Positions 9,278 through 58,730 of a DNA stretch of 64,000 nt are shown piece after piece. The notes under the pieces were generated by a model. The model was not told the DNA's origin. It did no database searches and worked only from the letters and a program-made list of their open reading frames with translations. Each line of letters starts with the position of its first letter. Positions within the stretch are counted from its first letter, which is position 1. The position numbers were made by a program, and so were the translations under genes. This stretch comes from Bacillota bacterium (lineage in GTDB: Bacteria > Bacillota > Clostridia > Christensenellales > CAMQZB01), in NCBI GenBank assembly GCA_044426045.1, contig JAWXUX010000011.1:760-64759 (forward strand). Direction: 5' to 3'.

Positions 9278-11536
9278 ATGAAGGTTTTTAAAATTGTGAT
9301 AATGGGAATTTTGGTGGCTTGTTTGGTGGTTTTGGGATTTTTTTCCGCTTATTTTTTCAGCGTTTATAATCGCGGAAAAGAAATCGACATCAACTTCGAA
9401 AATAACCTTGACAAATTCGTTTTTTTAGAGTTTTTCGACGGTGAAAATAACATTGCGGAGTTTGGCGGAATGGATTTTTGTGAGTCTGGCGAAATCAAAA
9501 GTCACACTTTCAACGCGTTTATTGCAAAGGAAGATAGACGATTTTTGTCGCATTCTGGGGTGGATTTTCGCGGTATTTTGCGTGCGGGAATTGTGAATTT
9601 GAAAAGTGGCAACGCCGTTCAAGGGGGTTCAACAATCACGCAACAGCTTGCAAAAAATTTGCTTTTATCATCAGAAAAAAAGCTTTCACGAAAGATAACA
9701 GAAGTGGCTCTTGCAAGAAAGATTGAGGAAAATTATACAAAGGAAGAGATTTTGACGATGTATCTCAACGTGATATATTTTGGGGAAAACACGTTTGGAA
9801 TAACTGATGCTTCAATGCTTTATTTTGGCAAAAAGCCATGCGAGCTTACGATTTCCGAAAGTGCCATGCTTGCGGGAATTTTGCCGTCCCCTGAAAATTT
9901 TTCGCCGATAAAATCAATAGATATTGCCAAAGAAAAGCGAGATATTGTGCTTTTGCTTATGAAAAATGAAAATTATATCACTGAAATGGAATATCAAAAT
10001 GCACTGAAAGAAGAAATCACGCTGAATATAACAAAAAGTGAGGGGGAAAATTATGATTATCTGAATCACGCAATGAAAGAGGCTTCGGAAATTTTGGGGA
10101 TTTCCGAGCGAGAACTTGCGGGGCTTGATTATAAAATTTTCACTTATATGGATGCAAATAAGCAATCGGAAATTAAAAAACTTGGCGATGAAATAACGGA
10201 AACCGACGGGGTTTTGCTTGCCATCGACAACCAAACTCGCGGGGTTTTGGGGGTTTTTGAGAGCCGTCATGACATGATTTTTGAAAGGCGGTCGCCGGCT
10301 TCACTTATAAAGCCACTGCTTGTTTATGCCCCTGCACTTGAGGAAAATATTATTTTTGAAGAGTGCGTTCTTGACGATAAAAAGACGGATTTTGAGGGTT
10401 ATTGCCCGCGAAATTATAACGATGTTTACTACGGCGAGGTGACGGCAAAAACGGCGCTTGCCAAAAGTTTGAACGTGCCAAGCGTGAAAATTCTTGACTC
10501 GCTTTCCGTTGAAACTGCCACGAGGTACGCTCGCATGCTTGATTTGCCACTTGAAAAGAGCGACACAGGGCTTGCCGTTGCACTTGGTGGGCTTTCACAT
10601 GGCTTTTCGCCCATTGAAATTTCCGCGGGATATGCGAGTGTTGCCGATGGCGGAGAATTTGCAAAAACAGCTTTTGTGCGTGAGATTGTGAGTTCTTCCG
10701 GAGAGATTATTTACTCTCGCGAGGTTGAAAAACAAAAGGTTTTTGGGGAGGACACGGCATATATTTTGACTGATATGTTGAAAGAATGCACGCGAGTTGG
10801 CACGGGAAAAAAACTTGGGGAAGTTTCACCTTTTATCGCTTCAAAAACCGGCACAAATGGCGATGAAAACGGCAATTTTGATGCACTTGCTTGCGCTTAT
10901 TCACCTTTGGAAACCTTTTTTTGTTGGCTTGGAAATGCGGATTTTTCGCGAGTTTCAAGCAGCATAAAAGGGAGCACACTGCCAATTGATAATGCGGTGA
11001 AATATTTTTCTTCATGCAGTGAGATTTCAGATTTTGAAAAGCCCGAAAGCGTTGTTACCCTTTCATATGACAAAAATGAATATTTGGAAAACGGGAAACT
11101 GCTTCTTTCAACTGCCGACACGCCCGCAAAATATGTCGGAAAAACACTGATTTCAAAGCGATTTTGCCCCATATTGAAAAGTTTGAAATATTCTTTTCCA
11201 AAAGTCGCTGGTGCTAGCATCGTTCAAAGTGGCGAATATTTAGAAATTGAGTTTTTGTCGCAAGAATTTGCAAAATACGAAATTAAAAATAAAGTGACGG
11301 GTGAAATCGACAGCGAAATTTTAGGAACGGGCAAGAATATTTCCGTTGTTCTCCCCGCAAATGGAGATTATGCACAATTTGAAATCACAGCTTTTAACAA
11401 AGAAACAAATAAAAAAGGTGAAACGCATATTTTTGAAAAATTATATTTGAAAAAGAACTTTTTGCCAAGTGAAAAAGGACTGACTGGCGAAGATATGCCA
11501 AAGAGCGATGCGGAGATATTGGAGTTTTTTTCGTGA
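9278..11536 (+). CDS. Class A penicillin-binding protein (glycosyltransferase + transpeptidase)
   Basis: GT51 motifs (EDRRFLSHSGVD, GGSTITQQL) followed by a transpeptidase region (SLIKP, KTG). Start placed at the ATG before the TM helix MKVFKIVIMGILV (GGTGGTGGG upstream). The stop TGA lies inside a GTGAAAG-like heptamer. Confidence 0.85.
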   Translation: MKVFKIVIMGILVACLVVLGFFSAYFFSVYNRGKEIDINFENNLDKFVFLEFFDGENNIAEFGGMDFCESGEIKSHTFNAFIAKEDRRFLSHSGVDFRGILRAGIVNLKSGNAVQGGSTITQQLAKNLLLSSEKKLSRKITEVALARKIEENYTKEEILTMYLNVIYFGENTFGITDASMLYFGKKPCELTISESAMLAGILPSPENFSPIKSIDIAKEKRDIVLLLMKNENYITEMEYQNALKEEITLNITKSEGENYDYLNHAMKEASEILGISERELAGLDYKIFTYMDANKQSEIKKLGDEITETDGVLLAIDNQTRGVLGVFESRHDMIFERRSPASLIKPLLVYAPALEENIIFEECVLDDKKTDFEGYCPRNYNDVYYGEVTAKTALAKSLNVPSVKILDSLSVETATRYARMLDLPLEKSDTGLAVALGGLSHGFSPIEISAGYASVADGGEFAKTAFVREIVSSSGEIIYSREVEKQKVFGEDTAYILTDMLKECTRVGTGKKLGEVSPFIASKTGTNGDENGNFDALACAYSPLETFFCWLGNADFSRVSSSIKGSTLPIDNAVKYFSSCSEISDFEKPESVVTLSYDKNEYLENGKLLLSTADTPAKYVGKTLISKRFCPILKSLKYSFPKVAGASIVQSGEYLEIEFLSQEFAKYEIKNKVTGEIDSEILGTGKNISVVLPANGDYAQFEITAFNKETNKKGETHIFEKLYLKKNFLPSEKGLTGEDMPKSDAEILEFFS

Positions 11537-11549
11537 AAGGAAAAAAAAA

Positions 11550-11794
11550 GTGAAAGGTGAAAGGTAAAAGGTGAAAGGTGAAAGGTGAAAGGTGAAAGGT
11601 GAAAGGTGTGGTAGGCACTCGGCTTCGCCTCGTGCACCCCATTATATTTAGGTAGCAAAAAAGGAACGCTCCTATTTGAATAGTTACGTCCCTATTATGG
11701 ATTACAAATATAATTGAAAAGCACGAAGCGAAGCTGAGTGCATTACCACACCTTTCACCTTTCACCTTTCACCTTTCACCTGACGCGTAGCGTC
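11550..11794. repeat. Composite palindromic intergenic element, copy A (type 1 core)
   Basis: 8x GTGAAAG (one GTAAAAG), GTGTGGTAGG, hairpin GCACTCGGCTTCGCCTCGTGC, AT-rich core with AGGAACGCTCCT hairpin, hairpin GCACGAAGCGAAGCTGAGTGC, ATTACCACAC, 4x CTTTCAC, mini-hairpin GACGCgtaGCGTC. Lies between convergent PBP and GntR genes. An isolated heptamer at 11533-11540 contains the PBP stop. Confidence 0.9.
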
Positions 11795-12544
11795 CTATTT
11801 TTTTGCCAACATTTCCTTGAAAAGGTTATTTTCTGACACGATTTCGGCTACGTCGCCAGAAAGTGTTACGTTTTCGAAATATTCTGGGTATTTTTCAACG
11901 ATTTCGTCTTTTTCTGTGATAACTTTTCTCACGTGTTGGCGAAGGACTTGTTTTGCGCCTTCGACATCTTCGTTTTTGATACATTCAAGCAAGTTTTCGT
12001 GTTGCACAATGTTTGTTTCAATCACGTCTTCAACCATCATTGAAAGGTATCTCATACGGCGATAGTTGCCACCAACTGAAACTGTCACTTCATAGCACAT
12101 TGGCTTATCCACATCTTCATACATGATTTGGTGGAATTGGTCGTCATATTCCATGAATTTGATATAATCTTTTTCAGCGGCTGCCTTTTTTTGTTTTCCG
12201 ATTATTCTTTCCAACCTGTAGATAGCTTCTTCGGATTTTTCTTTCACGAAAAGTTCCAAAACTGCCCTTTCCACAGATTCACGCAAGAAGCGTTCTTCAT
12301 TTGCGTGGTGGTAGTTGATTTTTGAGATGAACGTGCCTTTTTGCGGAATGATGTTCACTAGCCCTTCTCTTGAAAGTTTGATAAAAGCTTCTCTCACAGG
12401 TGTTCTTGAAACGCCCAATTTTACAGAGAGTTCTTGTTCGCTCATTGCTGTTCCTGGGGCAAGGTTCAAGTTGATGATATTATTTCTTATCGCTTGATAA
12501 ATTCTGCTTCCAACTGAGTTGTTTTCTTTTGATTGATTTTGCAT
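11795..12544 (-). CDS. GntR family transcriptional regulator (FadR/FCD-type C-terminal domain)
   Basis: Winged-HTH signature LSVKLGVSRTPVREAFIKLSREGLV, with a helical C-terminal domain. Confidence 0.85.
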   Translation of the reverse strand: MQNQSKENNSVGSRIYQAIRNNIINLNLAPGTAMSEQELSVKLGVSRTPVREAFIKLSREGLVNIIPQKGTFISKINYHHANEERFLRESVERAVLELFVKEKSEEAIYRLERIIGKQKKAAAEKDYIKFMEYDDQFHQIMYEDVDKPMCYEVTVSVGGNYRRMRYLSMMVEDVIETNIVQHENLLECIKNEDVEGAKQVLRQHVRKVITEKDEIVEKYPEYFENVTLSGDVAEIVSENNLFKEMLAKK

Positions 12545-12554
12545 AGTGCTCCTC

Positions 12555-13643
12555 CTATGTATTGAAACGCGGTGCGTCTTCCGTTCTGCCTTTCAGCGTG
12601 CAATATTTGTCGGTTCTGTCAAGCGGGAACTTGACTGTTTCCCCCGTTATTGCTGATTTATAGATTGCGACAACCATTTCAAGGGCGTTCCTGCCGTCCT
12701 CGCCAGTTATCAAAAGTTGCTCTGCGCCCAAAATTGCGTTCACAAAGTTTGCAATTTGACCGTCGAACTTTTGCGGTTTATTATATTCTTTTTTTTCAAA
12801 AAGTTTTTCAATTTCGGTTTTGCCATCGGGGTCATCGGTGTTGAAACCATTTTCAAGACCCTTTGAACACAAAACGCCAAACGGGATTGAAACTCCGCCT
12901 TTTTCCGTTTGGAAAAAGATTTCCTTTTTCTCGCCGTGGTGAAGCATTGAACATTGAAGCGTTGCAAGACTGCCGTTTGGATATTTCAAAATCGATATTG
13001 AAATGTCCTCTTCTTGCGAGCTTTTGTGGTTCAAATTTGAAAAAACTGATGTGATTTCGCAAGGCGTGCCGTTTGCCCAAAGCAAAAGGTCGATATGGTG
13101 GATTGCGTTGTTCATCGTGACACCGCCACCTTCGATTTCCCATTTGCCTCGCCAGTCCATATCGTAATACGCGTCGGAACGATACCAATGCGAGTGTACG
13201 TCGGTGTGGAAAACTTTTCCAAGCTCGCCACTTTTCAGCATTTCGATAACTTTTGCGTTGTCGCTGTCGTATCTGTTTTGTGCGACTGAAGAAAACACGC
13301 ATCCATTTTCGCTTGCGGTTTTTATCATTATATCACAATCTTCGATACTTTGAGCCAATGGTTTTTCACAAATCACGTGCTTTTTTGCAGAAAATGCGTC
13401 GCAAGCGATTGTTTTGTGGCTTGCGGGCGGTGAACAGATTGAAACAATGTCGCAAAGCGAAAGTCCGTCGCGATAGTCTGAAACACACTCGCAATCAAGG
13501 TTGAACTGCTTTTTCAGCGCTAGAGCTTTCGTCACATCGCGGTTTGCAAGTGCTGTTATTTTGCAATCCTCACCTTTTGCAAGGAATGCTTTTATGTGTT
13601 TGGGTGCAATCATTCCACACCCAACAATCATAACTTTTAACAT
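12555..13643 (-). CDS. Gfo/Idh/MocA family oxidoreductase
   Basis: N-terminal Rossmann motif VMIVGCGMIAPKH and EKP motif (VICEKPLA). Confidence 0.85.
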   Translation of the reverse strand: MLKVMIVGCGMIAPKHIKAFLAKGEDCKITALANRDVTKALALKKQFNLDCECVSDYRDGLSLCDIVSICSPPASHKTIACDAFSAKKHVICEKPLAQSIEDCDIMIKTASENGCVFSSVAQNRYDSDNAKVIEMLKSGELGKVFHTDVHSHWYRSDAYYDMDWRGKWEIEGGGVTMNNAIHHIDLLLWANGTPCEITSVFSNLNHKSSQEEDISISILKYPNGSLATLQCSMLHHGEKKEIFFQTEKGGVSIPFGVLCSKGLENGFNTDDPDGKTEIEKLFEKKEYNKPQKFDGQIANFVNAILGAEQLLITGEDGRNALEMVVAIYKSAITGETVKFPLDRTDKYCTLKGRTEDAPRFNT

Positions 13644-13682
13644 AATTTACCCCTGTTTATGTTTTGTTGGTTATTTTATTAT

Positions 13683-13863
13683 GGGCACTTCTAAAAAGTA
13701 TTGACCAAAGATTGATTTCAAAAAAAGTGCGTATTTTTTGCAGAATTTCGACGTAAAACTGGACGTTTTTCTAGAAATTTTGTGTTACGAGCGTAGCGAA
13801 CTACCTGAAAATCAAGCCTTTTTTGGGAATTAAGATTTGAGTTAAGACTTTTTAGAAGTGCCC
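13683..13863. mobile_element. MITE-like element (family 2), copy 1
   Basis: Perfect 17-18 bp terminal inverted repeats GGGCACTTCTAAAAAGT...ACTTTTTAGAAGTGCCC, with TTAT on both flanks. Lies between uxuA and the oxidoreductase gene. Confidence 0.8.
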
Positions 13864-13889
13864 TTATTTCTTATTGCTGTTTTTCAGTC

Positions 13890-15021: not shown

Positions 15022-15073
15022 GAGGGAGAGTTAAAAAAATCGGGAGATTTTTTTAAAGGGGAAAGAGAGGAAG

Positions 15074-15353
15074 GTGAAAGGTGAAAGGTGAAAGGTGAAA
15101 GGTGAAAGGTGAAAGGTGAAAGGTGAAAGGTGTGGTAATGCACTCGCCTTGCTCGTGCTTTCTATATTTCAATTTTGGCGGGCGTTGGGGACGGTACGCA
15201 CACATGGGTGCGACCCTACGCATGGAAATAGCTACAAACACGTTAAAACGCTTGTAGCTATTGTAGTTTTGTATTTAATTTAGGATGCACGGAGCGTTAG
15301 CGTAGTGCCTACCACACCTTTCACCTTTCACCTTTCACCTTTCACCTTTCACC
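15074..15353. repeat. Composite palindromic intergenic element, copy B (type 2 core, long variant)
   Basis: 8x GTGAAAG, GTGTGGTAATGCACTCG... hairpin, core with stem ATAGCTACAA/TTGTAGCTAT and a 49-nt GC-rich insert (15177-15225), ...GTAGTGCCTACCACAC, 5x CTTTCAC. The inner part is inverted relative to type 1. Confidence 0.9.
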
Positions 15354-15361
15354 TTATAAAA

Positions 15362-16732: not shown

Positions 16733-16824
16733 TTTGTCCTTTAAAGATGTTTTTTATTTCGTTTATATATTTTCGTTTTTTCGTTTGTAGTATTGTTTGT
16801 ATTATTTTCGTTTATAGTATTGTT

Positions 16825-17316
16825 TTATTGATGTTGTTTATTTTTATATTCGTCTTTCACTTTTTGGATGATTTTTTCAGGCACTGCAAATGAGATATCG
16901 CCGTCAAATTTGAGCAGTTGACGGACAAAAGACGAGCTCACACATGTGAGGTTTGGACTTGCAGAAAGATAGACACACTCGAAATTTTCGTCGAGATGCT
17001 TATTCACTTGCTCCATTGAAACTTCATATTCAAAGTCGGTTGCGTTGCGAATTCCACGAACAACGGCGTTGATTTCGTTTTGTTTCACAAAGTCCACCGC
17101 TAGCCCTTCAAAAGACGATACAATAATTTTTTCGTCATGTTCAAATAGTGATTTTATGAAACCAAGGCGAGTTTCAAGTGGGAAAGCATATCTTTTTTCT
17201 GGATTTTCAAATATGCAGATATAAACTTTGTCAAACAGCTTTTCCGCCCTTTTGATTACTTCTTCGTGACCTTTTGTGATTGGGTCAAAACTTCCTGAAA
17301 TCAGACATTTTCTCAT
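16825..17316 (-). CDS. coaD: Phosphopantetheine adenylyltransferase
   Basis: 163 aa. GSFDPITKGHEEVI (T/HxGH nucleotidyltransferase motif). Confidence 0.9.
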   Translation of the reverse strand: MRKCLISGSFDPITKGHEEVIKRAEKLFDKVYICIFENPEKRYAFPLETRLGFIKSLFEHDEKIIVSSFEGLAVDFVKQNEINAVVRGIRNATDFEYEVSMEQVNKHLDENFECVYLSASPNLTCVSSSFVRQLLKFDGDISFAVPEKIIQKVKDEYKNKQHQ

Positions 17317-23894: not shown

Positions 23895-23943
23895 GCAAAG
23901 GAGCTTTGCTCCGCATGCCTACCACAATTTTTAATTTTTAATT
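23895..23943. repeat. Solo or degenerate end of the composite element
   Basis: GCAAAGGAGCTTTGCTCCGCATGCCTACCACAA followed by 2x TTTTTAA. Resembles the ...GCACGGAGCGAAAGCGTAGTGCCTACCACAA end of copy E. No partner arm is present. Confidence 0.5.
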
Positions 23944-35468: not shown

Positions 35469-35475
35469 GCGAAAA

Positions 35476-35619
35476 GCGTGTTTTTCGTCCGCTTATGCTT
35501 TTTTTATAAAAATAAGTTTGTGGCACGCTGTTTTATTTAGGTGAAAAGTGAAAGGCGTATTTTTTTATCCGCTTATGCTTTTTTATAAAAATAAGTTTGT
35601 GGCACGCTGTTTTATTTAG
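35476..35619. repeat. Tandem duplication (2 x ~79 bp) of a 65-nt hairpin module separated by GTGAAA(A/G) heptamers
   Basis: GCGT(G/A)TTTTT..TCCGCTTATGCTTTTTT(T)ATAAAAATAAGTTTGTGGCACGCTGTTTTATTTAG occurs at 35476-35540 and 35555-19. Outer stem GCGTG/CACGC, inner stem CTTAT/ATAAG, T-runs on both strands (terminator-like). A shorter relative lies at 55681-55735. Confidence 0.8.
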
Positions 35620-35891
35620 GTGAAAGGTGAAAGGTGAAAGGTGAAAGGTGTGGTAGGCACTCGCTTTGCTCGTGCACCCTATTATATTTGGACAGTAAAA
35701 AAGGAACGTTCCTATTAAATAGTTACGTTCCTACAAGTGGTTACAAATATAATTGAAAAGCACGAGCGGTACGCGAGTGCATTACCACACCTTTCACCTT
35801 TCACCTTTCACCTTTCACCTTAAGCGTAGCGTTTCACCTTTCACCTTTCACCTTTCACCTTTCACCTTAAGCGAAGCGTTTCACCTTTCAC
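35620..35891. repeat. Composite palindromic intergenic element, copy C (type 1 core)
   Basis: 4x GTGAAAG, GTGTGGTAGG hairpin, core with perfect palindrome AGGAACGTTCCT, hairpin GCACGAGCGGTACGCGAGTGC, ATTACCACAC, 4x CTTTCAC, then two further blocks each made of a TTAAGCG(T/A)AGCGTT mini-hairpin plus heptamers. Abuts the PHP gene stop. Confidence 0.9.
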
Positions 35892-36604
35892 TTTAAAAAA
35901 GCTTCTCTCTCCAAAACCCCAAAAATCCCCTCTACGCTTTTTTCACATTCTAGCCAACACTCTGCTTCCGCCATGCTTTCTAGGTAGTGGGCATCGGAGT
36001 TATCTAGGACTCGGTAGTTTTCAAGTCCTGCGTTTTTAAGGTCTTCCATAGTGGCGTTTTTGCCTTTTTCTATTATTTTGAAGCCCATATCGCTGTCCAT
36101 TCCGCCTAGGATTGGGATTATTCCACTGCCCTCTTTCAAAACGTGGGCGGGGAAACAAATTCCGCCAAGGCTATCCACGATTTTTGCGATTTCGTATATG
36201 CCAATATCAACGCCATAAAGGGTGAAGTTTGGGTTTTCGCCCGTCACTTCATCATTTTCGTTCATATAAATTTGCTTTCCGAAAATTCTTTCATCGTTTG
36301 GCATAATCGTCATTCTTGAAAGCACAATTTTTTCAAGCTGCACGGCGGAATCTGCCGTTTTGAAAAGGCACACCACGTGGATATCTTCACTTGTTGTGAC
36401 TTCCATTCCTGCAATCACGATAAGACCCACGCTTTCACCCACTTTTTGGCACGCGCAAACATTGCCCGCGGTGTTGTGATCGCAAATTGCAATCGCATCA
36501 TACCCAAGCATTTTTGCAAAATTCACCACGTTGTTTGGGGTGTTTTCCTCCCCGCCACACGGTGAAAGGCATGTGTGGATGTGAAAGTCATAGTAGCATT
36601 TCAT
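35888..36604 (-). CDS. PHP (polymerase/histidinol phosphatase) domain protein
   Basis: 238 aa. YDFHIHTCLSPCG and AICDHN metal-binding motifs. The stop TGA is contributed by a GTGAAAG heptamer of the adjacent repeat element. Confidence 0.8.
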   Translation of the reverse strand: MKCYYDFHIHTCLSPCGGEENTPNNVVNFAKMLGYDAIAICDHNTAGNVCACQKVGESVGLIVIAGMEVTTSEDIHVVCLFKTADSAVQLEKIVLSRMTIMPNDERIFGKQIYMNENDEVTGENPNFTLYGVDIGIYEIAKIVDSLGGICFPAHVLKEGSGIIPILGGMDSDMGFKIIEKGKNATMEDLKNAGLENYRVLDNSDAHYLESMAEAECWLECEKSVEGIFGVLEREAFLK

Positions 36605-41055: not shown

Positions 41056-41329
41056 GGTGAAAGGTAAAATCTGAAAAATTAAAGTAAAAAGCTTTGCTTT
41101 AAGTGAAAAGTGAAAAGTGAAAAGTGAAAAGTGAGGTAGGCACTCGTTTCGCTCGTGCACCCTATTATATTTGGGCACTGAAATAGGGACGCCCCTATTT
41201 GAATAGTTGCGTTCCTTCTGCTAGTTGCAAATATAATTGAAAAGCACGAGCGGTACGCGAGTGCATTACCTCACTTTTCACTTTTCACTTTTCACTTTTC
41301 ACTTAACGCGTAGCGTTTCACCTCTCACC
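41056..41329. repeat. Composite palindromic intergenic element, copy D (type 1 core, GTGAAAA arm variant)
   Basis: Decayed heptamers, AAAGCtttGCTTT mini-hairpin, 4x GTGAAAA, GTGAGGTAGG..., core, ...CATTACCTCAC, 4x TTTTCAC, TTAACGCGTAGCGTT. Both the arm changes and the T>A change are mirrored on the other side. Ends 24 nt upstream of the recQ ATG. Confidence 0.9.
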
Positions 41330-45135: not shown

Positions 45136-45160
45136 TAGAAAATGAGGGGAAATTTTATAA

Positions 45161-45358
45161 GTGAATAGTGAATAGTGAATAGTGAATAGTTGTGGTAATG
45201 CACTCGCTTCGCTCGTGCTTTCTATGTTTGGAAATTAGAATAGTTGCAAACACTTGAAATTGTTTGCAACTATTGTAGTTTTATATTCAATTTTGTATGC
45301 ACGGAGCGAAAGCGTAGTGCCTACCACAACTATTCACTATTCCCTATTCTCTATTCAC
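45161..45358. repeat. Composite palindromic intergenic element, copy E (type 2 core, GTGAATA arm variant)
   Basis: 4x GTGAATA, GTTGTGGTAATGCAC..., core stem ATAGTTGCAAACA/TGTTTGCAACTAT, ...GTGCCTACCACAAC, TATTCAC/TATTCCC/TATTCTC/TATTCAC. Confidence 0.9.
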
Positions 45359-45361
45359 TTT

Positions 45362-45386
45362 AAAAAATTTGCAAAGCAAATTTTTT
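45362..45386 (-). terminator. Terminator of the spoIIIA operon
   Basis: Perfect palindrome AAAAAATTTGCaaaGCAAATTTTTT overlapping the spoIIIAH stop. Confidence 0.55.
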
Positions 45387-52112: not shown

Positions 52113-52150
52113 AAAACAGTTACAAGATTTTGTCTTGTAACTGTTTTTTT
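52113..52150 (+). terminator. Intrinsic terminator after serA
   Basis: ACAGTTACAAGattttgtCTTGTAACTGT followed by TTTTTTT. Confidence 0.8.
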
Positions 52151-52222
52151 ATTTGCTTTATTTGTTTTTGTTTTGTTTGTTTGCTTTATTTTTTGCTTTT
52201 TATTTTTGTTTTTATTTTTATT

Positions 52223-52927
52223 TTAGTCACCGAGTGGAATTCTTATTGTGTCTTCTTTGGTGGCAGCATATTTTTTGGCAAAGTTCGCACTTTCTTCGGC
52301 GACCACCCTTTCCATGAGCTCCCATTCGCCTATTCTTGAGATTGAAATTTCAAAGGCGGTGCGAGTTTCTTCGGTGGTTTCGGTTTTTTTCGTGTACTGA
52401 CGCGATTGAATTCTTCCGATAACGGAAAGTTGACTGCCAACTTCTAGGCTTTGGGCAAACCTTGCGTTTCTTCCCCACGCGATTGCGGGGATATAGTCGC
52501 TTTTGCCAAACGAGCGATTGACAGCAACCAAAATATCGGCAATTTCCCTTGCAAAAGGGGTTGTTCTAAAAATTGTTGGCTTGCAGATATAGCCAGAAAG
52601 TGCAATCACGTTTGGGTTTTTTGAAAAGTCGTTTTCCAATATATTTCTTGCAAAAACTGTTAAAACGAGTTTGGATTTGCCACTAGAAAGCTTGTTGTAG
52701 CTTCGAAATTGCCCGAAAATCGTGAGCACTTCGCCGATTTCCACATTGACTTCCGAAAGCAATCTTTCTGAAATGGTGACGGGCACGATATCGCACTGCC
52801 CCGACAGCCTTTCGACAGAAAAGTCCATTTCATAAAAACCTTCGCCATAAACTTCGTGTGAATAAATCGGCATTGATTTGATTTCACCACGAATGTACAC
52901 TTGATTATTTTTCTCTTCGCAAAACAT
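52223..52927 (-). CDS. SSB-like protein with two OB-fold-like halves
   Basis: 234 aa. The second half (IPAIAWGRNARFA..LEVGSQLSVIGRIQSRQY) matches the SSB OB-fold pattern. The first half has the same pattern, weaker. Confidence 0.45.
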   Translation of the reverse strand: MFCEEKNNQVYIRGEIKSMPIYSHEVYGEGFYEMDFSVERLSGQCDIVPVTISERLLSEVNVEIGEVLTIFGQFRSYNKLSSGKSKLVLTVFARNILENDFSKNPNVIALSGYICKPTIFRTTPFAREIADILVAVNRSFGKSDYIPAIAWGRNARFAQSLEVGSQLSVIGRIQSRQYTKKTETTEETRTAFEISISRIGEWELMERVVAEESANFAKKYAATKEDTIRIPLGD

Positions 52928-52943
52928 TTATTTACCCCTCTTT

Positions 52944-53675: not shown

Positions 53676-53846
53676 ATCATCTCCTTTATTATACCAAGTG
53701 CACATGTGTAAAAGCTATACACTAACCGCTCTATTAATGTCGAAGTTTCACTGTTTTTAGCAAAAAAACGGGTGTGAGAGTTTCGGTGCGGTTTTGAGTT
53801 TTGTTTATTATATGCGAGAGGGGGTGGGGAATATGTTTTTTTTAAG

Positions 53847-54048
53847 GTGAAAGGTGAAAGGTGAAAGGTGAAAGGTTTGGTAGGCACTCGCTTCGCTCGT
53901 GCATTCAATTTATATTTGGGCAGTAAAAAAGGAACGTTCCTATTTGAATAGTTACGTCCCTACTATTGGTTACAAATATAATTGAAAAGCACGAAGCGAA
54001 GCTGAGTGCATTACCACACCTTTCACCTTTCACCTTTCACCTTTCACC
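53847..54048. repeat. Composite palindromic intergenic element, copy F (type 1 core)
   Basis: 4x GTGAAAG, GTTTGGTAGG hairpin, core, hairpin, ATTACCACAC, 4x CTTTCAC. The most compact type 1 copy. Confidence 0.9.
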
Positions 54049-54052
54049 TAAT

Positions 54053-54071
54053 AAAAAATCTTCGATTTTTT
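54053..54071 (-). terminator. Weak AT-rich hairpin at the permease stop
   Basis: AAAAAATCttcGATTTTTT. Confidence 0.3.
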
Positions 54072-55419
54072 ATTTTGCTTTCTTATTCATAAAAATCATA
54101 CCCACAACGCCGACTACTGCGAAAACTATCAAATAATAGAAGTTTGCCCAGCCGTGGCTTACTATTGAGGCTGTCATCATGACAAGTGAAGCCGCGCAGC
54201 CTGCGATTGGCATAACGAATCTTTTGAAGAATGGCAAATCTTTTTCCTTTTTCATCATCATGATGAAAATTGGGATATAAAGTGCATAGATTGTTACGAT
54301 TGGAATTTCTGATGAGTCAAACGTGAACACTCCAAACCATGTTGATGTGAGGTTTGCGCCATAGAAATATAGTAGCCAAAAACCTGAAAGGAACAAGCCA
54401 AGAACACAAGAGTTTGTTGGCATGCCAGTTGTTTTATCGATTGTTTTGAGCATATCTTGTTTTGGACCAAGGTCTCTTGCTGCAAGTGAATAAAGCGCAC
54501 GAACGCCACCCAGCATCAAGCCGTTTTCTGTTCCCAAAACTGAAATCACAATAAACACCATCAAGATTGTTGCACCGCCAGAGCCAAGAAGGTTTGTGAA
54601 CGCTTGTTTAACACCCTCTTCGCCAAGTGACATGAGGTCAGCGTTTCCGATTGAACCAGCTAGTCCAATATAATAGACAACATATGTCACCACAACGATG
54701 AGCGTTCCGCCAACTAGGGCTATTGGTAAGTTCTTTTTCGCGTCTTTGAGTTCGGCATTGATTGATGTTGCAATGATCCACCCTTCATAGGCAAAACATG
54801 TCGCACAAACTGCCGTGAAAAGACCTGTTGATGTTGAAACTGTTGGATCAACAACTGTTGTGAAGTTTTCAATCATCACGCCGTTTGAAAGACCCACGAT
54901 TGTTCCCACAACCGCCATGATTGCAAGTGGAATCATTTTGATTACCGTTGTTGAAACTTGGAATTTGCCCGCAAGTATTGGCGAAATTGTGTTCATCGTG
55001 AATGATGCCACCAAAACAAACATTGAAATTGTCATAACTTCAGCTGATGTGATGTCAAATCCAAGAAGCACGCCGATATATCTGCCCGATATCCATGCGA
55101 GAACTGAAACTAGTGATGGATAATAAATTATCGCCATGAACCAACCAACAAAGTAGCCATATTTTTTGCCACACGCTTGTTCGGCATAGTCCACAAGTCC
55201 ATTAACCTTTTCATATTTTGTTGCCATAACAGCAAAATTATAAGCACAAATAACCATGATGATACCACCGATTATCCATGCCAAAATGCCAATCGGCAAG
55301 TTTCCGCCAGTTGCATTCAGTACTTTTTCTGCTTTGAAAAATACACCACTTCCGATAACGATACCAACAACAAGTGCCATCGCCGTGAAGAGTCCATATT
55401 TTTTTGATAAGTTGTCCAT
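54070..55419 (-). CDS. APC superfamily amino-acid permease
   Basis: 449 aa, about 12 TM helices, N-terminal GIVIGSGVF motif. Confidence 0.85.
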   Translation of the reverse strand: MDNLSKKYGLFTAMALVVGIVIGSGVFFKAEKVLNATGGNLPIGILAWIIGGIIMVICAYNFAVMATKYEKVNGLVDYAEQACGKKYGYFVGWFMAIIYYPSLVSVLAWISGRYIGVLLGFDITSAEVMTISMFVLVASFTMNTISPILAGKFQVSTTVIKMIPLAIMAVVGTIVGLSNGVMIENFTTVVDPTVSTSTGLFTAVCATCFAYEGWIIATSINAELKDAKKNLPIALVGGTLIVVVTYVVYYIGLAGSIGNADLMSLGEEGVKQAFTNLLGSGGATILMVFIVISVLGTENGLMLGGVRALYSLAARDLGPKQDMLKTIDKTTGMPTNSCVLGLFLSGFWLLYFYGANLTSTWFGVFTFDSSEIPIVTIYALYIPIFIMMMKKEKDLPFFKRFVMPIAGCAASLVMMTASIVSHGWANFYYLIVFAVVGVVGMIFMNKKAK

Positions 55420-55487
55420 AATTTTATTTCTCCCCTTTTATCATTATGCATTTTTGTATAACTTTATTCTCTTAGCTATACGTATAA

Positions 55488-55516
55488 ATTATACACTCGT
55501 CTTATTTGTTTGTCAA
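55488..55516 (-). promoter_or_regulatory. Sigma-A-type promoter of the amino-acid permease gene
   Basis: Minus strand TTGACA-N17-TATAAT (perfect consensus). Confidence 0.6.
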
Positions 55517-55659
55517 TTATTTAACAGAAAAAATTCACCAATATATAGCACTAAATCAAACTTTATTTCACTTATTTTATCATCGATTCCAAAATGCTCT
55601 TTTTTGGTAATTTTTGCAGTGTTTATGGCGGTGTTTGGTTTTTAAAATACGACAAATTT

Positions 55660-55691
55660 GCGTGTATCTAGCTTGATACACGCGTGTTTTT
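55660..55691 (+). terminator. Orphan terminator-like hairpin (no obvious plus-strand gene)
   Basis: GCGTGTATCtagcttGATACACGC followed by GTGTTTTT. Its 3' half is related to the 65-nt module at 35476-35619. Confidence 0.4.
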
Positions 55692-55906
55692 GGATAGCAT
55701 TCGCACGCTGTTTTTTGTTGTTTTTTAGGGGGATGTTCTAGGATTATTTCACTTGAAACTTCAACATTTTCAACGCCGAAATAAAAATGAATTTCCTTTT
55801 CTTCCCTGTCGCAAATTGATGTGTAGAATTTCATGGGGGGGGTGATTTTTTTTGGTTTTGAGTTTGGGCATAGTTAGGCGGTTGGTTTGGGGGGATATTT
55901 TTTTAA

Positions 55907-56172
55907 GTGAAAGGTGAAAGGTGAAAGGTGAAAGGTGTGGTAGGCACTACGCTTCGCTCCGTGCACCCCATTATATTTGGCTAGTTTAATAGGAACGTTC
56001 CTATTGAATAGTTGCGTTCCTACAAGTGGTTGCAAATATAATTGAAAAGCACAAGGCAAAGCCGAGTGCATTACCACAACTTTTCACTTTTCACTTTTCA
56101 CTTTTCACTTTAAGCGTAGCGTTTCACTTTAAGCGTAGCGTTTCACTTTAAGCGTAGCGTTTCACCTTTTAC
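55907..56172. repeat. Composite palindromic intergenic element, copy G (type 1 core, mixed arms)
   Basis: Left arm 4x GTGAAAG but right arm 4x TTTTCAC (GTGAAAA type). Followed by 3 tandem 19-bp units TTTAAGCGTAGCGTTTCAC (56109-56165). Confidence 0.9.
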
Positions 56173-56175
56173 CTT

Positions 56176-56194
56176 AAAATCGCTACGCGATTTT
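56176..56194 (-). terminator. Hairpin at the stop of 56193..57056
   Basis: AAAATCGCtacGCGATTTT. Confidence 0.35.
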
Positions 56195-57056
56195 ATCTAT
56201 CGTTTTTCTTTGCTTTCACGATATAGTTGCCGTTTTTTACGTTACCGAACATGTAGTATCCGATGTCGTTGGTTCTTGTTGTTGCGATACATCTTTCGAT
56301 TTGTTTGCTTGTTGCGTTGATTTCGTAAAGACCAACATAAACGCCTGTTTTGATTACGTTATCATATTTCACAAAGCCAGAGATTGTGCCTGTGTTTGTT
56401 TCGGGATCTTTGACGATGATGAGCGTTGAGTTGACGATATTGCCACCCGCGATAGTCACAAGGATTGTGTTTGAAGCCTTATAACCATCTTTTGTTGCAA
56501 CGATGTTATACGCGCCGTCTTCGATTGCGTAAAAAACAAACTCGCCGTCGTCGGCTGAAATTGTTGTTGCAATTGTTTCGTCAGTTTCTGGGTTTTTGAG
56601 ATACACTTTTGCATTTTCCGCTGATGAAGTTTCATCGTTATCGAAAAGTTCTTTGACAATACCTGCAACAGTGCCAAGTTCCATTGTGGTGTCATATTCA
56701 AGTGTCAAATCAACGCTTTGAAGTTCGTTTGGGTTCAAAATGCATGTTTTTGGAATACTGATTGGGCATTTTTTCGATGTGCATGCGATTGAATACGTTC
56801 CGCTTGCAAGGTCTTCGAAAATATATTTACCAGAGGCATCTGTCAAAACGTGGAGATACGGTTTGCCGTTTTCGTCGAATAATTTGACCGTTGCACCTTC
56901 TGCTGGATTGCCGTCTTGGTCAGTAACCGTTCCTTCAATTCCTGAAGAGTCGTTTTCTGATTCCGCAAGCGACAGTGTCACTTCAAATTCTTCCTTATCT
57001 TGCAATGTGAATTCATCACTATACACCAATTTGTATTTATCTTTTATAATTGCCAT
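56193..57056 (-). CDS. Protein with three carboxypeptidase-regulatory-like (CarboxypepD_reg-type beta-sandwich) repeats, no signal peptide
   Basis: 287 aa with three repeats of G.V.G.V.D..G.P...A.V.L.......TD..G.Y.F..L..G.Y. Confidence 0.65.
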   Translation of the reverse strand: MAIIKDKYKLVYSDEFTLQDKEEFEVTLSLAESENDSSGIEGTVTDQDGNPAEGATVKLFDENGKPYLHVLTDASGKYIFEDLASGTYSIACTSKKCPISIPKTCILNPNELQSVDLTLEYDTTMELGTVAGIVKELFDNDETSSAENAKVYLKNPETDETIATTISADDGEFVFYAIEDGAYNIVATKDGYKASNTILVTIAGGNIVNSTLIIVKDPETNTGTISGFVKYDNVIKTGVYVGLYEINATSKQIERCIATTRTNDIGYYMFGNVKNGNYIVKAKKNDR

Positions 57057-57109
57057 AATATGGTTCTCCTTTGCTTTCGCAATGTGTGTTTTTGGTTCTC
57101 ACCATACCC

Positions 57110-57137
57110 CATTATATGAATTGTTATTTTGTTTGGT
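57110..57137 (-). promoter_or_regulatory. Sigma-K-like promoter candidate for 56193..57056
   Basis: Minus strand AC-N17-CATATAATG (Bacillus sigma-K consensus AC-N16/17-CATAnnnTA). No sigma-A -35 is present. Confidence 0.3.
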
Positions 57138-57229
57138 GTGAAATTTTGCCTTTCTTAAAAGAATTTTTCCCAAAATTAAGGTTACTTTAAAGTTTGAGAT
57201 TTATTCTTTTATTAAGCAAAACACTAGTC

Positions 57230-57257
57230 ACATTTTGAAGCCACCTCGCATAATATC
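57230..57257 (+). promoter_or_regulatory. Sigma-K-like promoter candidate for 57279..57905
   Basis: AC-N17-CATAATATC. Confidence 0.25.
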
Positions 57258-57278
57258 AAGCAAAGCGGGAGGTTAAAA

Positions 57279-57905
57279 ATGGAAAAATTTTATACGGATA
57301 TCATGGCGGGAATTGCCCTTGAAGAGGCGGGGATTGCACACATTTTGAATGCGGAAGGTGAAAAAATTCAGCTTGCCGTTGCAAATTGTAGCAATATTTG
57401 CGAGCTTTTGGAAGTCAATGCTTCGGTTGCTTGCACGATTGAGGAGATTATGTGGCTTGAATTTATTTCATACCACAAAATGAAAACTCTGCTGGGCTGT
57501 TGCAGTTGCCAAAATTGCAAGGAAGAAAAACCACCACGGAAAAAGCCTTGCTGTGACGAAAAAAAGAAATGTCCACCAAAAGCGCCCTGCAAAAAATGTG
57601 GCGGGGGTGAGACTGGGGATTGCTTGCCAATAAAAGAAAAGCCAAACTGCTCTTGTAGGGTAGAAATTTGCGGTCGCGTTTTTAAAGCGAACGGCGAAAT
57701 TGCAACTTGCGGAGTTGTGACTGCTAACGGAAATGGCGTGGTTTCAACGGAAATTTGCTCGGATGGTAGGTATTTTTTGAAAAACCTGAACCCAACGACT
57801 AAACTTGTTGTCAATGCACATTCGAATTGCGGAAAAACTGGTTCTTTTCTTTTGAAAAAACCGTTTAAAAATTCTTATCAAATAGATATGTTTTTGGACG
57901 GTTAA
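57279..57905 (+). CDS. Cys/Lys/Pro-rich protein: N-terminal AHILNAEGEKIQ helical domain plus C-terminal beta-sandwich-like domain
   Basis: 208 aa. The N-terminal ~75 aa are homologous to the 58029..58394 product. Linker CCSCQNCKEEKPPRKKPCCDEKKKCPPKAPCKKCGGG. GGGAGG SD. Confidence 0.6.
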   Translation: MEKFYTDIMAGIALEEAGIAHILNAEGEKIQLAVANCSNICELLEVNASVACTIEEIMWLEFISYHKMKTLLGCCSCQNCKEEKPPRKKPCCDEKKKCPPKAPCKKCGGGETGDCLPIKEKPNCSCRVEICGRVFKANGEIATCGVVTANGNGVVSTEICSDGRYFLKNLNPTTKLVVNAHSNCGKTGSFLLKKPFKNSYQIDMFLDG

Positions 57906-57950
57906 TTCACTTTATATGGTGATTTAAACTCTTACTTCTTTTTTATTAGC

Positions 57951-57980
57951 AAAAAACATCCCAAAAGTGGGATGTTTTTT
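57951..57980. terminator. Bidirectional intrinsic terminator between convergent genes
   Basis: AAAAAACATCCCAaaagTGGGATGTTTTTT. Confidence 0.7.
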
Positions 57981-58028
57981 GTTTTTTTTATTTGTTTTTG
58001 CTTGATTTTGTTTGTTTTTGGCTTGCTT

Positions 58029-58394
58029 TTATAAAGCTTCTGCTGTTTTGCTGACTTCTGTTTCGTCTTTAACGATAACTTCTTCTTCCACAACTTCGAC
58101 TTCTTCCTTAACTTCTTCGTCACATTTGCAAAGACAATCGGTGAACAATCCTAGTTTTGAAATCAAAATCTTTTCAAGTTCGGCAACAGTCCCAACCATG
58201 TCGGACACAGAATTGTTGAATTCGAGAAGCTGTTCGCTTGTCACCTCTTTATCCGCAACAACACGTTGAATTTTTTCGCCCTCCGCATTCAAAATATGTG
58301 CAAGAGCTGCTTGTTCAAGTGCAACTGATGCAATGATATCTGTTATGGCTTCGCAACGAGTTACCCCGCTTGTTTCAATTACTGGCATTCCCAT
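58029..58394 (-). CDS. Small protein with AHILNAEGEKIQ helical domain and acidic tail
   Basis: 121 aa. TDIIASVALEQAALAHILNAEGEKIQ...CLCKCDEE followed by an E/V-rich tail. AAAGGAGAAAC SD. Confidence 0.6.
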   Translation of the reverse strand: MGMPVIETSGVTRCEAITDIIASVALEQAALAHILNAEGEKIQRVVADKEVTSEQLLEFNNSVSDMVGTVAELEKILISKLGLFTDCLCKCDEEVKEEVEVVEEEVIVKDETEVSKTAEAL

Positions 58395-58433
58395 TTTTAG
58401 TTTCTCCTTTTTGGTTTATGCCTTATTATATGC

Positions 58434-58462
58434 AAAGGGGGGAGGGGGAGGTGCTGGGGTGG
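58434..58462 (-). promoter_or_regulatory. Sigma-K-like promoter candidate for 58029..58394
   Basis: Minus strand AC-N18-CATATAATA. Confidence 0.3.
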
Positions 58463-58516
58463 GTGCAGATTTTTTTTGTTGAGAGGATTTAGAATATAAT
58501 GTTATAGTTTTTTAAA

Positions 58517-58730
58517 GTGAAAAGTGAAAGGTGAAAGGTGAAAGGTGTGGTAATGCACTCGCTTTGCTCGTGCTTTCAATGTTTAAAAATATAAATAGTT
58601 GCAAACAACTTTTGTCGTTTGCAACTTATTTTAGTTTTGTATTCAATTTTGGGTGCACGGAGCGTTAGCGTAGTGCCTACCACACCTTTCACCTTTCACC
58701 TTTCACCTTTCACCTTAGCGAAGCGTTTTA
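58517..58730. repeat. Composite palindromic intergenic element, copy H (type 2 core)
   Basis: GTGAAAA + 3x GTGAAAG, GTGTGGTAATGCAC..., core stem AGTTGCAAAC/GTTTGCAACT, ...GTGCCTACCACAC, 4x CTTTCAC, TTAGCGAAGCGTT. Confidence 0.9.

Follow-up and report, generated by a model that had tools for sequence, protein, structure and literature searches.

Mosaic palindromic intergenic elements with REP-like tagged hairpins and terminator-like cores in an uncultured Clostridia-type bacterium

The 64-kb window (the whole stretch of DNA that was analysed) carries a dense repeat family of an uncultured Clostridia-type bacterium. The family is undescribed and most resembles the REP/BIME elements of Proteobacteria. 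It comprises eight full copies and one half copy in the window, all intergenic, with an element size of about 200-280 bp. We put at roughly even odds (about 0.5) the reading that the repeats belong to the REP/BIME/REPIN kind, as mosaic palindromic elements between the genes of a Clostridia-like Bacillota lineage. Compensatory change maintains the hairpin of each arm, and the terminator-like cores are directed at the upstream gene in the informative copies. The family is REP/BIME/REPIN-like, or MITE-like, in a new form, and probably serves to terminate transcription.

An initial annotation of this DNA had described eight full copies and one fragment of a structured intergenic family with REP-like hairpins, occupying about 3% of the window. 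This description was borne out: the copies are present far above chance expectation, and their summed length is 1951 bp, about 3%. With up to one mismatch, GTGAAAGGTGAAAG has 48 matches in the window (0.05 expected), and GGTAGGCACT-N9-12-CGTGCA has 8 (0 expected), one per copy. Tandem Repeats Finder placed a period-7 array at either side of each copy and, elsewhere in the window, found such arrays only at the fragment. The annotation could assign no named repeat family; we likewise found no match in Rfam, in phage and plasmid records, or for the family's sequence strings in the literature.

From the outside inwards, an element consists of a T-run, an array of A-rich heptamers in tandem, TGTGGTA, an imperfect hairpin with a tag and a conserved core, beyond which the first four parts are repeated as a mirror image. 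The inverted arms of the window copies are 38-55 nt long and 90-100% complementary. The tagged hairpin reads GTAG|GCAC-TC-..-TC-GTGC at one end and GTAAT|GCAC... at the other, and its interior between the TC dinucleotides is a 2-4 bp stem with a 3-4 nt loop. The two ends are thus non-equivalent, and we call them the 'GG end' (GGTAG|GCAC) and the 'AT end' (GGTAAT|GCAC). Several details of the initial annotation needed revision. The heptamer GTGAAAG is present, but the unit varies by copy (GTGAAAG, GTGAAAA and GTGAATA in the window), and ATTAAAA occurs in the fragment and in a related metagenome-assembled genome (MAG). The stretch between the hairpins, given as 90-190 nt, measures about 80-130 nt. 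Type 1 (A, C, D, F, G) and type 2 (B, E, H) indeed have different cores and opposite orientations, but it is the whole inner unit, ends included, that lies inverted in type 2. The right-flank mini-hairpin is a GCGTAGC/GCGAAGC-type module, AAGCGTAGCGTT, whose 7 occurrences are all on the + strand and all at the right of type-1 copies. Finally, copy A sits between convergent genes. The copies are as follows.

Copy A, 11533..11794, + strand: type 1, GG end left, occupying all of the space that separates two convergent stop codons; outermost GTGAAAG at 11533-11539, which includes the stop TGA (11534-11536) of the left gene, penicillin-binding protein (PBP); arrays 11546-11608 (left) and 11749-11781 (right); TGTGGTA 11607-11613; hairpins 11615-11635 (GTAG-tagged), 11662-11693 (central) and 11721-11741 (inverse); mini-hairpin GACGCGTAGCGTC 11782-11794; adjoining stop codon of a GntR-family regulator 11795-11797.
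Copy B, 15055..15355, - strand: type 2, AT end left; core with an extra GC-rich insert of about 48 nt; arrays 15055-15132 and 15315-15355; hairpins 15140-15158 (AT), 15229-15260 (central) and 15287-15308 (GG); stop codon of the upstream gene, a MatE-family transporter, 15362-15364, 6 nt from the array.
Half element (the fragment), 23895..23943, - strand: (ATTAAAA)2-ATTGTGGTAG, then hairpin GGAGC-AAA-GCTCC, then a U-rich tail; 3' of the minus-strand gene 23986-25284; the layout recurs in the related MAG (L012 5540-5650).
Copy C, 35618..35896, + strand: type 1, right arm amplified as 47-bp modules; left array 35618-35650; hairpins 35657-35675 (GG), 35702-35732 (central) and 35760-35780 (AT); right arrays with AAGCG(T/A)AGCGTT modules 35788-35896; stop TGA of a PHP-domain gene (35888-35890) within the last heptamer.
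Copy D, 41056..41329, + strand: type 1, GTGAAAA heptamers, TGAGGTA ends, terminator U-tract degenerate; degenerate heptamers 41056-41100; arrays 41101-41134 and 41271-41304; hairpins 41140-41158 (GG), 41185-41216 (central) and 41244-41264 (AT); mini-hairpin module 41306-41317; nearby stop codon of a heparinase-like gene 41332-41334.
Copy E, 45150..45369, - strand: type 2, GTGAATA heptamers; arrays 45160-45190 and 45329-45359; hairpins 45200-45218 (AT), 45239-45274 (central) and 45299-45320 (GG); a small terminator hairpin between the copy and the spoIIIAH stop codon at 45385; argH promoter beside it at 45135-45107, a perfect TTGACA-17-TATAAT.
Copy F, 53836..54058, + strand: type 1; T-run and array 53836-53876; array and A-run 54017-54058; hairpins 53884-53902 (GG), 53930-53961 (central; -13.5 kcal/mol, followed by U5 on the minus strand) and 53989-54009 (AT).
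Copy G, 55898..56172, + strand: type 1, left arm GTGAAAG, right arm GTGAAAA; arrays 55907-55937 and 56079-56111; hairpins 55944-55964 (GG), 55991-56021 (central) and 56049-56069 (AT); three 19-bp TTTCACTTTAAGCGTAGCG modules, with 19-bp repeats at 56103-56165.
Copy H, 58513..58730, - strand: type 2; arrays 58517-58547 and 58683-58716; hairpins 58555-58573 (AT), 58597-58626 (central; flagged terminator-like on the minus strand) and 58655-58676 (GG); GCGAAGC module 58718-58730.

The initial annotation proposed that each copy folds into a very long hairpin or cruciform. Thermodynamic folding does predict this structure, but it is not the pairing maintained by evolution. In our covariation analysis, the inner stems of the local hairpins are paired in 100% of cells, and five pairs have both members substituted (GC/AU and CG/GC); the score of the local hairpins was reached in 0 of 500 shuffles. 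In the arm-to-arm model, the covarying positions are unpaired in 4-8 of the 14 copies, and the score is no different from shuffles. Compensatory change maintains each arm's own hairpin and breaks arm-to-arm pairing at exactly those positions. The outer stem gains a GCAT/ATGC variant from the related MAG.

Published REPs have a GTAG tag at the hairpin foot, non-complementary dinucleotides between stem and loop, and loops bounded by GC/GC or GGC/GCC; their dimers are head-to-head, tags outside, 20-100 bp apart (PMC3733652). In our elements, too, an imperfect hairpin has GTAG immediately at its foot, non-complementary dinucleotides separate the basal stem from a covarying, GC-bounded inner stem-loop, and the two units are inverted with their tags facing outwards. 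Further resemblances are that each element has two unit types that can be told apart (compare the E. coli y and z REPs), that its modules are mosaic and locally amplified, and that the many copies are intergenic, at gene 3' ends. The E. coli TnpAREP requires GTAG and a stem mismatch and cuts CC|T within CTAC (PMC3333891); the complement of the GG end is TGCC|TACC, giving CC|TAC, the E. coli cleavage motif. There are also differences. REP/BIME/REPIN elements belong to Proteobacteria, whereas ours come from a Bacillota (Clostridia-like) MAG. The spacer here is a conserved core with its own terminator hairpin, and tandem heptamer arrays, inverted relative to each other, enclose the pair together with T/A-runs. 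With just 4 bp, the basal stem falls below the 7-20 fully paired bases required by REP search rules in print (PMC6006769), which counts against the REP reading. REP elements have a RAYT nuclease; no RAYT gene was seen in the sequence examined here. No Y1 or other transposase was found in the 64 kb, as the initial annotation had noted, or in the ORFs adjoining the related-MAG copies, together a small part of either genome. Class-2 (TnpAREP-type) Y1 genes cluster in Cyanobacteria, Bacteroidetes and Proteobacteria, and Clostridia are named in that survey only for the IS200-type subclass 1.1 (PMC6006769), which counts against a RAYT.

In the REP/BIME/REPIN reading, the working unit would be the head-to-head pair of tagged imperfect hairpins bracketing the terminator-carrying core. 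An enzyme acting in trans on single-stranded DNA, where it would read the tagged hairpins, may have spread this unit to many operon ends, and the best model for it would be a RAYT-like HUH Y1 nuclease. Retention and sequence constraint could then come from service as transcription terminators or 3'-end insulators.

A conventional MITE seems rather unlikely to us. A DDE-type insertion sequence elsewhere would recognise TGTGGTA...TACCACA (TG...CA ends) and move the elements by cut-and-paste, with the terminator as cargo or later co-opted. The elements do have long terminal inverted repeats, stay below 300 bp, lack coding capacity and occur in many intergenic copies, and their frequent TTAA, TAA or TTA flanks on both sides could conceal a palindromic target duplication. 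However, the sequences immediately outside TGTGGTA are inverted rather than direct, as are the T-run and A-run beyond the arrays, and we see no direct duplication. The tagged hairpin does not vary, whereas TGTGG does (TGAGG in D, TTTGG in F). One end consistently has GTAG and the other GTAAT, half elements exist, and compensatory change in each hairpin fits recognition of single-stranded DNA, not of a double-stranded inverted repeat. The Correia elements of Neisseria are MITEs that measure about 100-300 bp, carry long terminal inverted repeats and occur between genes in hundreds of copies; folding as long hairpins is possible, and they can give neighbouring genes terminators or promoters. Our elements share their size class, repeats, intergenic abundance and predicted folding, and probably the supply of terminators. 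Unlike ours, Correia elements duplicate a TA target and end in plain inverted repeats; our elements show no duplication, their ends are tagged hairpins that covariation preserves, and their arms are built of microsatellites.

The family was found only in two related Bacillota MAGs, a patchy distribution restricted to one small clade; other related MAGs (argH 83-87% identical) have no copies in the few intergenic regions available. Copies are as similar between species as within a genome (75-90% identity). The argH proteins of the two species are 86% identical and element copies up to 90%; a paralogous heparinase-like gene pair has only 66% nucleotide and 55% protein identity, a comparison that speaks for constraint on the element sequence. 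With within-genome identity at only 75-90%, a recent burst is not indicated, and since neither genome has near-identical copy pairs, any spread would be old. Between 98.5%-identical strains, the element is present in both at all four comparable loci, with heptamer number and hairpin loops changing. Copy C differs by 11% between such strains: one has 4 units in the right array and the other 8, the loop of the AT hairpin has been swapped, and different sequence stands in the left flank. We only infer mobility and a RAYT-like enzyme, because neither a transposase nor a target-site duplication was seen, and comparison of the close strains revealed neither an empty site nor a new insertion.

Entered from the AT end, 11 of the 14 type-1 copies present a hairpin of about -14 kcal/mol with a U-rich tail behind it, in which at least 5 of 8 nt are U and runs reach 8 U; the opposite strand has such a hairpin in 0/14. 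The U-tracts of copies D and G are degenerate. The AT end faces the upstream gene in all nine informative type-1 copies, those between co-directional genes. Half of the window copies (A, B, C and D) contain a stop codon or lie 0-6 nt from one. The neutral safe haven envisaged earlier does not agree with this contact with the upstream stop codon and with terminator-like hairpins facing that gene, which make a host-level role likely. The elements appear to end the genes they follow, judging from the predicted terminator activity.

These features could also belong to host-encoded terminator/3'-UTR modules, or to sites of a nucleoid or RNA-binding protein, that are not transposons and were spread and homogenised by recombination or gene conversion. 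The operon-end position, stop-codon contact and terminator orientation agree with this, as do the AT-rich core blocks, which are strongly conserved across species without covariation, the lack of a transposase in the sequence examined, and copy C, which appears converted rather than newly inserted. We nevertheless consider such an origin improbable. The arm beyond the terminator would go untranscribed in the sense direction, yet it is conserved like the near arm; a role in RNA only fails to explain the mirror symmetry and the second tagged hairpin. Dispersal to more than 25 unrelated loci in two genomes would also need some mechanism, and the absence of copies from the few available intergenic regions of the other related MAGs also argues against a host module. 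An invertible DNA switch (inverton), in which a site-specific recombinase inverts the inner unit enclosed by the arms and toggles a one-way terminator for the adjacent operon, would suit a 130-190 bp segment with a directional terminator between inverted repeats and both orientations across loci, but is very improbable: the cores of types 1 and 2 differ, so the types are not flipped versions of one another, orientation is constant across independent assemblies at comparable loci (C, D, E and F in L001; E in L002 and L003), no recombinase gene is nearby, and all nine informative type-1 copies are in the terminating orientation.

The heptamer arrays of the REP-like elements may expand and contract by slippage. 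Nicking and rejoining at CC|T, which recurs every 7 nt in GTGAAAG arrays, could add to this; ATTAAAA and GTGAAAA lack CC|T, so the idea is not general. Eukaryotic Foldback (FB) transposons are kilobase-scale and have long terminal inverted repeats of short tandem subrepeats in variable number. Our elements resemble them in this construction, whereas FB transposons lack both tagged hairpins and a terminator core and have no sequence in common with our family. The cyanobacterial STRR sequences are intergenic tandem heptamer arrays, as are the TAACTGA repeats of Beggiatoaceae, Cyanobacteria and Bacteroidetes (PMC4679880). Like the arrays here, both are short, exact runs of a 7-nt unit, intergenic and variable in copy number. 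Those are direct repeats that stand on their own, most of them a short way before a start codon, whereas each array here is half of a mirror-image pair joined to a hairpin doublet, and its heptamer unit varies among copies.

The elements are a real, undescribed and lineage-restricted repeat family, best seen as doublets of tagged hairpins on either side of a predicted terminator, with heptamer microsatellites as mirror-image outer frames. Reading the eight full copies (A-H) and the half element at 23895-23943 confirmed the order of heptamers, hairpin, core, inverted hairpin and heptamers given in the initial annotation. The double heptamer GTGAAAGGTGAAAG, with at most one mismatch, occurs 48 times in the window against 0.05 expected, and GGTAGGCACT-N9-12-CGTGCA occurs eight times against 0 expected, once in each copy. 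Period-7 arrays detected by TRF lie on both flanks of each copy and elsewhere in the window only in the half element (23926-23943). The inverted arms of the copies are 38-55 nt long with 90-100% complementarity. Each arm begins on the outside with a T-run and continues inwards with a partial unit and an A-rich heptamer array, TGTGGTA, a tag and an imperfect hairpin, in which GCAC and TC lead into a stem of 2-4 bp with a loop of 3-4 nt, and TC and GTGC follow the second strand of the stem. The heptamer unit varies by copy, being GTGAAAG, GTGAAAA or GTGAATA in the window and ATTAAAA in the half element and the related genome, and the two arms of one copy usually, though not always, share the same unit. 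Some arms also carry small GC-(GAA/GTA/TTT/TAC)-GC mini-hairpin modules, at times amplified as 19- or 47-bp units.

Alignment of the inner units revealed a single polarity. One end, the GG end, always reads TGTGGTAG immediately before GCAC, and the other, the AT end, always reads TGTGGTAAT immediately before GCAC. The GG end is the left side in type 1 (copies A, C, D, F and G). Type 2 (B, E and H) had been described as having its inner part inverted; these copies are indeed reversed, but the reversal involves the whole inner unit and the core is also different. In every full copy, two inverted units with outward-facing tags are separated by 80-130 nt. GTAG directly abuts GCAC (0 nt) in 8/8 window copies and in most copies of the related MAG JAWXUU01. 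The other tags are GTAAT at the opposite end and GTAA or GTAAA in type 3, a third subfamily among the JAWXUU01 copies. The core of copy B contains an extra GC-rich insert of ~48 nt (GGCGGGCGTTGGGGACGGTACGCACACATGGGTGCGACCCTACGCATGG, 15183-15230) with its own hairpin potential, which could be a nested small element.

The window genes are a housekeeping set of spore-forming Bacillota (mutS/mutL, miaA/miaB, the pyr operon, spoIIIA, argH and recQ). Contig JAWXUW010000004.1 (MAG GCA_044426065.1) is 98.5% identical to the window and a Logan contig from SRR26557943 is 100% identical. The strict two-end pattern matched one of 185,579 species-representative genomes, that of JAWXUU01 ('Bacillota bacterium FM_57_G124_V'), whose argH protein is 86% identical to that of the window and which provided ~16 more full or half copies in about 77 kb. 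The copies recur in three independent assemblies, ruling out an assembly artefact as their source. Four more MAGs, two with argH 83-87% identical and two with argH ~70% identical, showed no copies in the 4.7-21 kb examined of each. The repeat had not been assignable to any named family, and an Rfam search of the whole window at gathering thresholds likewise gave no match; at E <= 5, the region 53700-58800 gave nothing relevant. There was no match for copy F among phages by BLAST or for the element pattern in a viral collection, the one match in a metagenome scan was due to chance (within a PEP-carboxykinase gene), and the literature on the element sequences and MAG accessions yielded nothing relevant. 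Short-read Logan contigs break in or at the edge of the elements (L002 ends at 45200, L003 ends at 45298 and L021 starts at copy A). Because the elements fragment short-read assemblies in this way, the family will be under-counted in MAG-based surveys. Two further contigs (L013 and L014) stop near element sites of the related MAG.

Thermodynamic folding predicts the single very long hairpin or cruciform proposed in the initial annotation, but covariation indicates that evolution has not preserved it. Two models were compared on 14 type-1 copies from two species. In the local-hairpin model, pairing within the inner stems holds in 100% of cells, with five two-sided pair changes (GC:12/AU:2, CG:12/GC:1/UG:1, GC:10/AU:4, CG:8/GC:5 and CG:6/GC:5), and the covariation score was reached by 0/500 shuffles. 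In the arm-to-arm model, those same inner-stem positions are unpaired in 4-8 of the 14 copies, and no measure was distinct from shuffles. This comparison rules out one long hairpin as the conserved structure. Identical hairpin variants are found at either end in different copies, and the outer stem GCAC/GTGC changes to GCAT/ATGC in the related genome. Together with the local covariation, these exchanges establish that the conserved unit is the tagged hairpin, present twice per element in inverted orientation.

Every window copy sits 3' of a minus-strand gene, as was first noticed from the sequence. The distances to stop codons are as follows.

Position of window copies relative to stop codons
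Copy A: fills the entire gap between convergent stops; the PBP stop (TGA, 11534-11536) is within the outermost GTGAAAG
Copy A, other side: the stop of a GntR-family gene comes directly after the element
Copy B: 6 nt from the upstream stop codon
Copy C: stop codon (TGA, 35888-35890) within the last heptamer
Copy D: 2 nt from the upstream stop codon

Copies E, F, G and H were said to lie past the gene's own terminator hairpin, and a small separate hairpin does intervene in all four. We scanned each strand of the 14 type-1 copies for a single hairpin followed by a U-tract. On the strand that is read from the GG end inwards, none of the type-1 copies has this combination. The opposite strand, read from the AT end, presents two tandem sites in type 1: the AT hairpin followed by UUUUC, and a central hairpin (AGGAACG..CGTTCCT, about -14 kcal/mol) with a U-rich tail (5 or more of 8 nt being U, in runs of up to eight) in 11/14 copies. 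Central hairpins with U-rich tails are also present in types 2 and 3, on both strands in type 2. The AT end faces the upstream gene in all nine type-1 copies located between co-directional genes (C, D, F and G in the window; U1, U3, U4, U5 and U6 in the related MAG), a bias with a two-sided binomial p of ~0.004 by our calculation. Copies A and U9, between convergent genes, and U2, in a divergent region beside a six-tRNA cluster, are uninformative for orientation and were left out; U2 is thus not an exception to the rule. In types 2 and 3 the ends are reversed relative to the genes, yet the terminator is still presented to the upstream gene, so the orientation bias follows the core and not the ends. 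Insertion machinery or replication strand is therefore an unlikely cause, and the bias argues for selection on function over a strand-specific insertion mechanism. Based on position, orientation and predicted structure, the elements likely act as terminators. Their likely host role is unusually visible, in that they would carry the terminators of the preceding genes, often starting at the stop codon.

In the related MAG (L005 4816-5423 and 5553-6656), copy U2 lies upstream of the six-tRNA cluster (Pro, Met, Asp, Phe, Thr, Tyr). After the cluster comes a gene for a phage-type integrase, so a prophage or island may be integrated there. In the window, the + strand is G-rich (the coding strand C-rich) between element and next gene start at 53770-53835, 55860-55897, 58440-58470, 15030-15070 and 45110-45150. 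Copy E was correctly noted to precede the next promoter: argH has a perfect TTGACA-17-TATAAT at 45135-45107, and its 17-nt spacer is the G-rich tract near copy E. The G-rich tracts seem to belong to the promoter or leader downstream and not to the element.

Copy identity is 74-91% across the two species and 75-91% within one genome, with no genome-specific clustering or near-identical pairs among the copies compared. Neutral intergenic DNA is expected to be no longer alignable at this species divergence, so nearly the entire inner unit is under constraint, and there was no recent burst. Empty sites had been suggested as a check on mobility; in the two strains that are 98.5% identical, an element is present in both at loci C, D, E and F. 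Three of these copies (D, E and F) show almost no change from one strain to the other. Copy C differs by 11%, with 4 versus 8 right heptamers, an AT hairpin of GCG-TAC-CGC in one strain versus GG-TGC-CC in the other, and an entirely different left flank. These differences show array slippage plus module replacement or conversion. The mirror-image heptamer microsatellites are fast-changing strain markers. Upstream of pyrC (35467-35634), the window has a 79-bp tandem duplication including a heptamer stub; the 98.5%-identical strain has there three ~35 bp G-rich repeats (GGGTGGGCACGCTTGGGCGGTTGGGGTGGGAGTTT; L001 ~20250-20420, reverse strand), which fit a G-quadruplex motif on the template strand. 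In both species an element lies 3' of the orthologous heparinase-like gene, but the two elements belong to different subfamilies and carry different heptamers. This suggests that such sites are used repeatedly or that one element replaced another in place. Sequence L012 of the related MAG contains the true ortholog; the heparinase-like gene in L008 was ruled out as a paralog.

Nearly all REP/REPIN-type elements and domesticated Y1 nucleases described so far belong to Proteobacteria or to one of a few other Gram-negative phyla. The present family is best seen as working like REP/BIME/REPIN elements, and we do not claim membership as proven. Under the REP search rule, the hairpin is preceded on its 5' side by the tetranucleotide GT[AG]G at a distance of 0-2 nt (PMC6006769), and GTAG lies at the hairpin foot (0 nt) here. 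The two-stem layout is also alike: beyond a 2x2 or 3x3 internal loop lies a second stem of 2-4 bp, closed by a 3-4 nt loop. However, the basal stem here is 4 bp (GCAC/GTGC), and the rule requires 7-20 fully paired nt, after which a bulge of 1-3 nt and another stem of 1-10 nt are optional (PMC6006769). As in REP/REPIN systems, the hairpin is kept as a structure through complementary changes between subfamilies, and every full copy contains an inverted doublet (head-to-head dimer). In foot tag, mismatches and dimers, the hairpins match descriptions of GTAG-tagged REPs, which have GTAG at the hairpin foot, non-complementary di- or trinucleotides between stem and loop bounded by GC/GC or GGC/GCC, and head-to-head dimers with tags outside, 20-100 bp apart (PMC3733652). 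The E. coli TnpAREP acts on single-stranded DNA only, needs GTAG and the stem mismatch, and cuts at CC^T (^ marks the cut), notably within CTAC (PMC3333891); similarly, the complement of the GG end reads TGCC^TACC. CC^T recurs every 7 nt in CTTTCAC arrays and is lacking in ATTAAAA and GTGAAAA arrays. By analogy, this recurrence and the GG-end site suggest a nick-and-rejoin origin of the CTTTCAC array type. Counting against membership, a survey of Y1 genes found the class-2 (TnpAREP-type) genes clustered in Cyanobacteria, Bacteroidetes and Proteobacteria; Clostridia were named only for IS200-type subclass 1.1 (PMC6006769). Given the 4-bp stem, this distribution and a search for a RAYT that covered only a small part of either genome, we describe the family as REP-like and not as a proven member. 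A dense family whose hairpins follow this grammar in a Clostridia-like lineage would widen the known range of REP/REPIN biology, and it would offer a tractable case for what REP-like elements do for their host.

Stand-alone heptamer arrays are known as STRRs, and Foldback transposons have inverted arms composed of tandem subrepeats. The latter resemble the elements in these arms and are otherwise unrelated. TAACTGA repeats are also stand-alone heptamer arrays (PMC4679880). Unlike the arrays of the elements, both STRRs and TAACTGA repeats are direct and not paired around hairpins.

The elements may constitute a mobile-terminator system. In Bacillota, a RAYT-like or new enzyme would recognise the hairpins in single-stranded DNA and carry complete terminator cassettes to the ends of operons. 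The same enzyme would also nick and rejoin, over and over, at sites 7 nt apart and in this way build the mirror-image, telomere-like heptamer arrays on both sides. The proposed mobility mechanism is modelled on REP systems, and we give this combination, in which one hairpin-reading enzyme disperses the cassettes and makes the microsatellite arms, a chance of roughly one in eight. In agreement with the initial annotation, the window encodes no transposase. It encodes no recombinase either, and no Y1 gene was found among its 41 scanned ORFs (all likely genes) or 10 ORFs beside JAWXUU01 copies. Two unannotated ORFs between G and H were ruled out as a RAYT, being paralogous small proteins without an HUH motif. 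These divergent ORFs (57279-57905, + strand, 208 aa; 58029-58394, - strand, 121 aa) have no Pfam match and share the N-terminal motif (I/V)ALE(E/Q)A..AHILNAEGEKIQ; the middle part of the longer one is rich in Cys, Lys and Pro. They may be paralogous spore or surface proteins.

A conventional DDE-type MITE is a possible alternative, with which the terminal inverted repeats, small size, many copies and absence of an ORF agree. However, no direct target duplication is visible at the flanks, which are inverted (a T-run on one side, an A-run on the other); any shared sequence would have to be a palindromic TTAA, TAA or TTA, indistinguishable from the palindrome. TGTGG varies and the hairpin does not, and the hairpin covariation better fits recognition of single-stranded DNA. 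The occupancy of C, D, E and F in both strains provides no presence/absence polymorphism, and no longer element with the same ends occurs in the sequence examined, a small part of each genome. A purely host-encoded terminator or 3'-UTR module explains position and constraint, but leaves unexplained the equally conserved arm beyond the terminator and the dispersal to >25 loci. An invertible switch (inverton, promoter or terminator) is unlikely, since the cores of types 1 and 2 differ, the orientation is identical in all independent assemblies compared, and there is no recombinase in the window and no invertase nearby.

In a BLAST search of copy F against plasmids, the heptamer run alone matched, on unrelated Pseudomonas, Sulfuricystis and Treponema plasmids; these matches are read as independent microsatellites. 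The Pseudomonas silvicola megaplasmid CP093281.1 (L019 1500-1600) has exact (GGTGAAA)n arrays at 11 places, one of them immediately beside a GC-rich hairpin, and a Treponema saccharophilum plasmid (L020 1340-1650) has long degenerate CTTTCAC-like arrays. Both are probably independent microsatellites, though the pairing of array and hairpin recurs.

Other repeats are present in the window. Three intergenic regions (16740-16844, 52148-52224 and 57976-58032) contain degenerate, T-rich tandem repeats, 5-35 nt in period, that have no link to the element family. An unrelated imperfect inverted repeat at 13680-13866, with 59-nt arms that are 71% complementary and 69 nt apart, lies between a GFO/IDH/MocA-family oxidoreductase gene (12555-13643) and uxuA.
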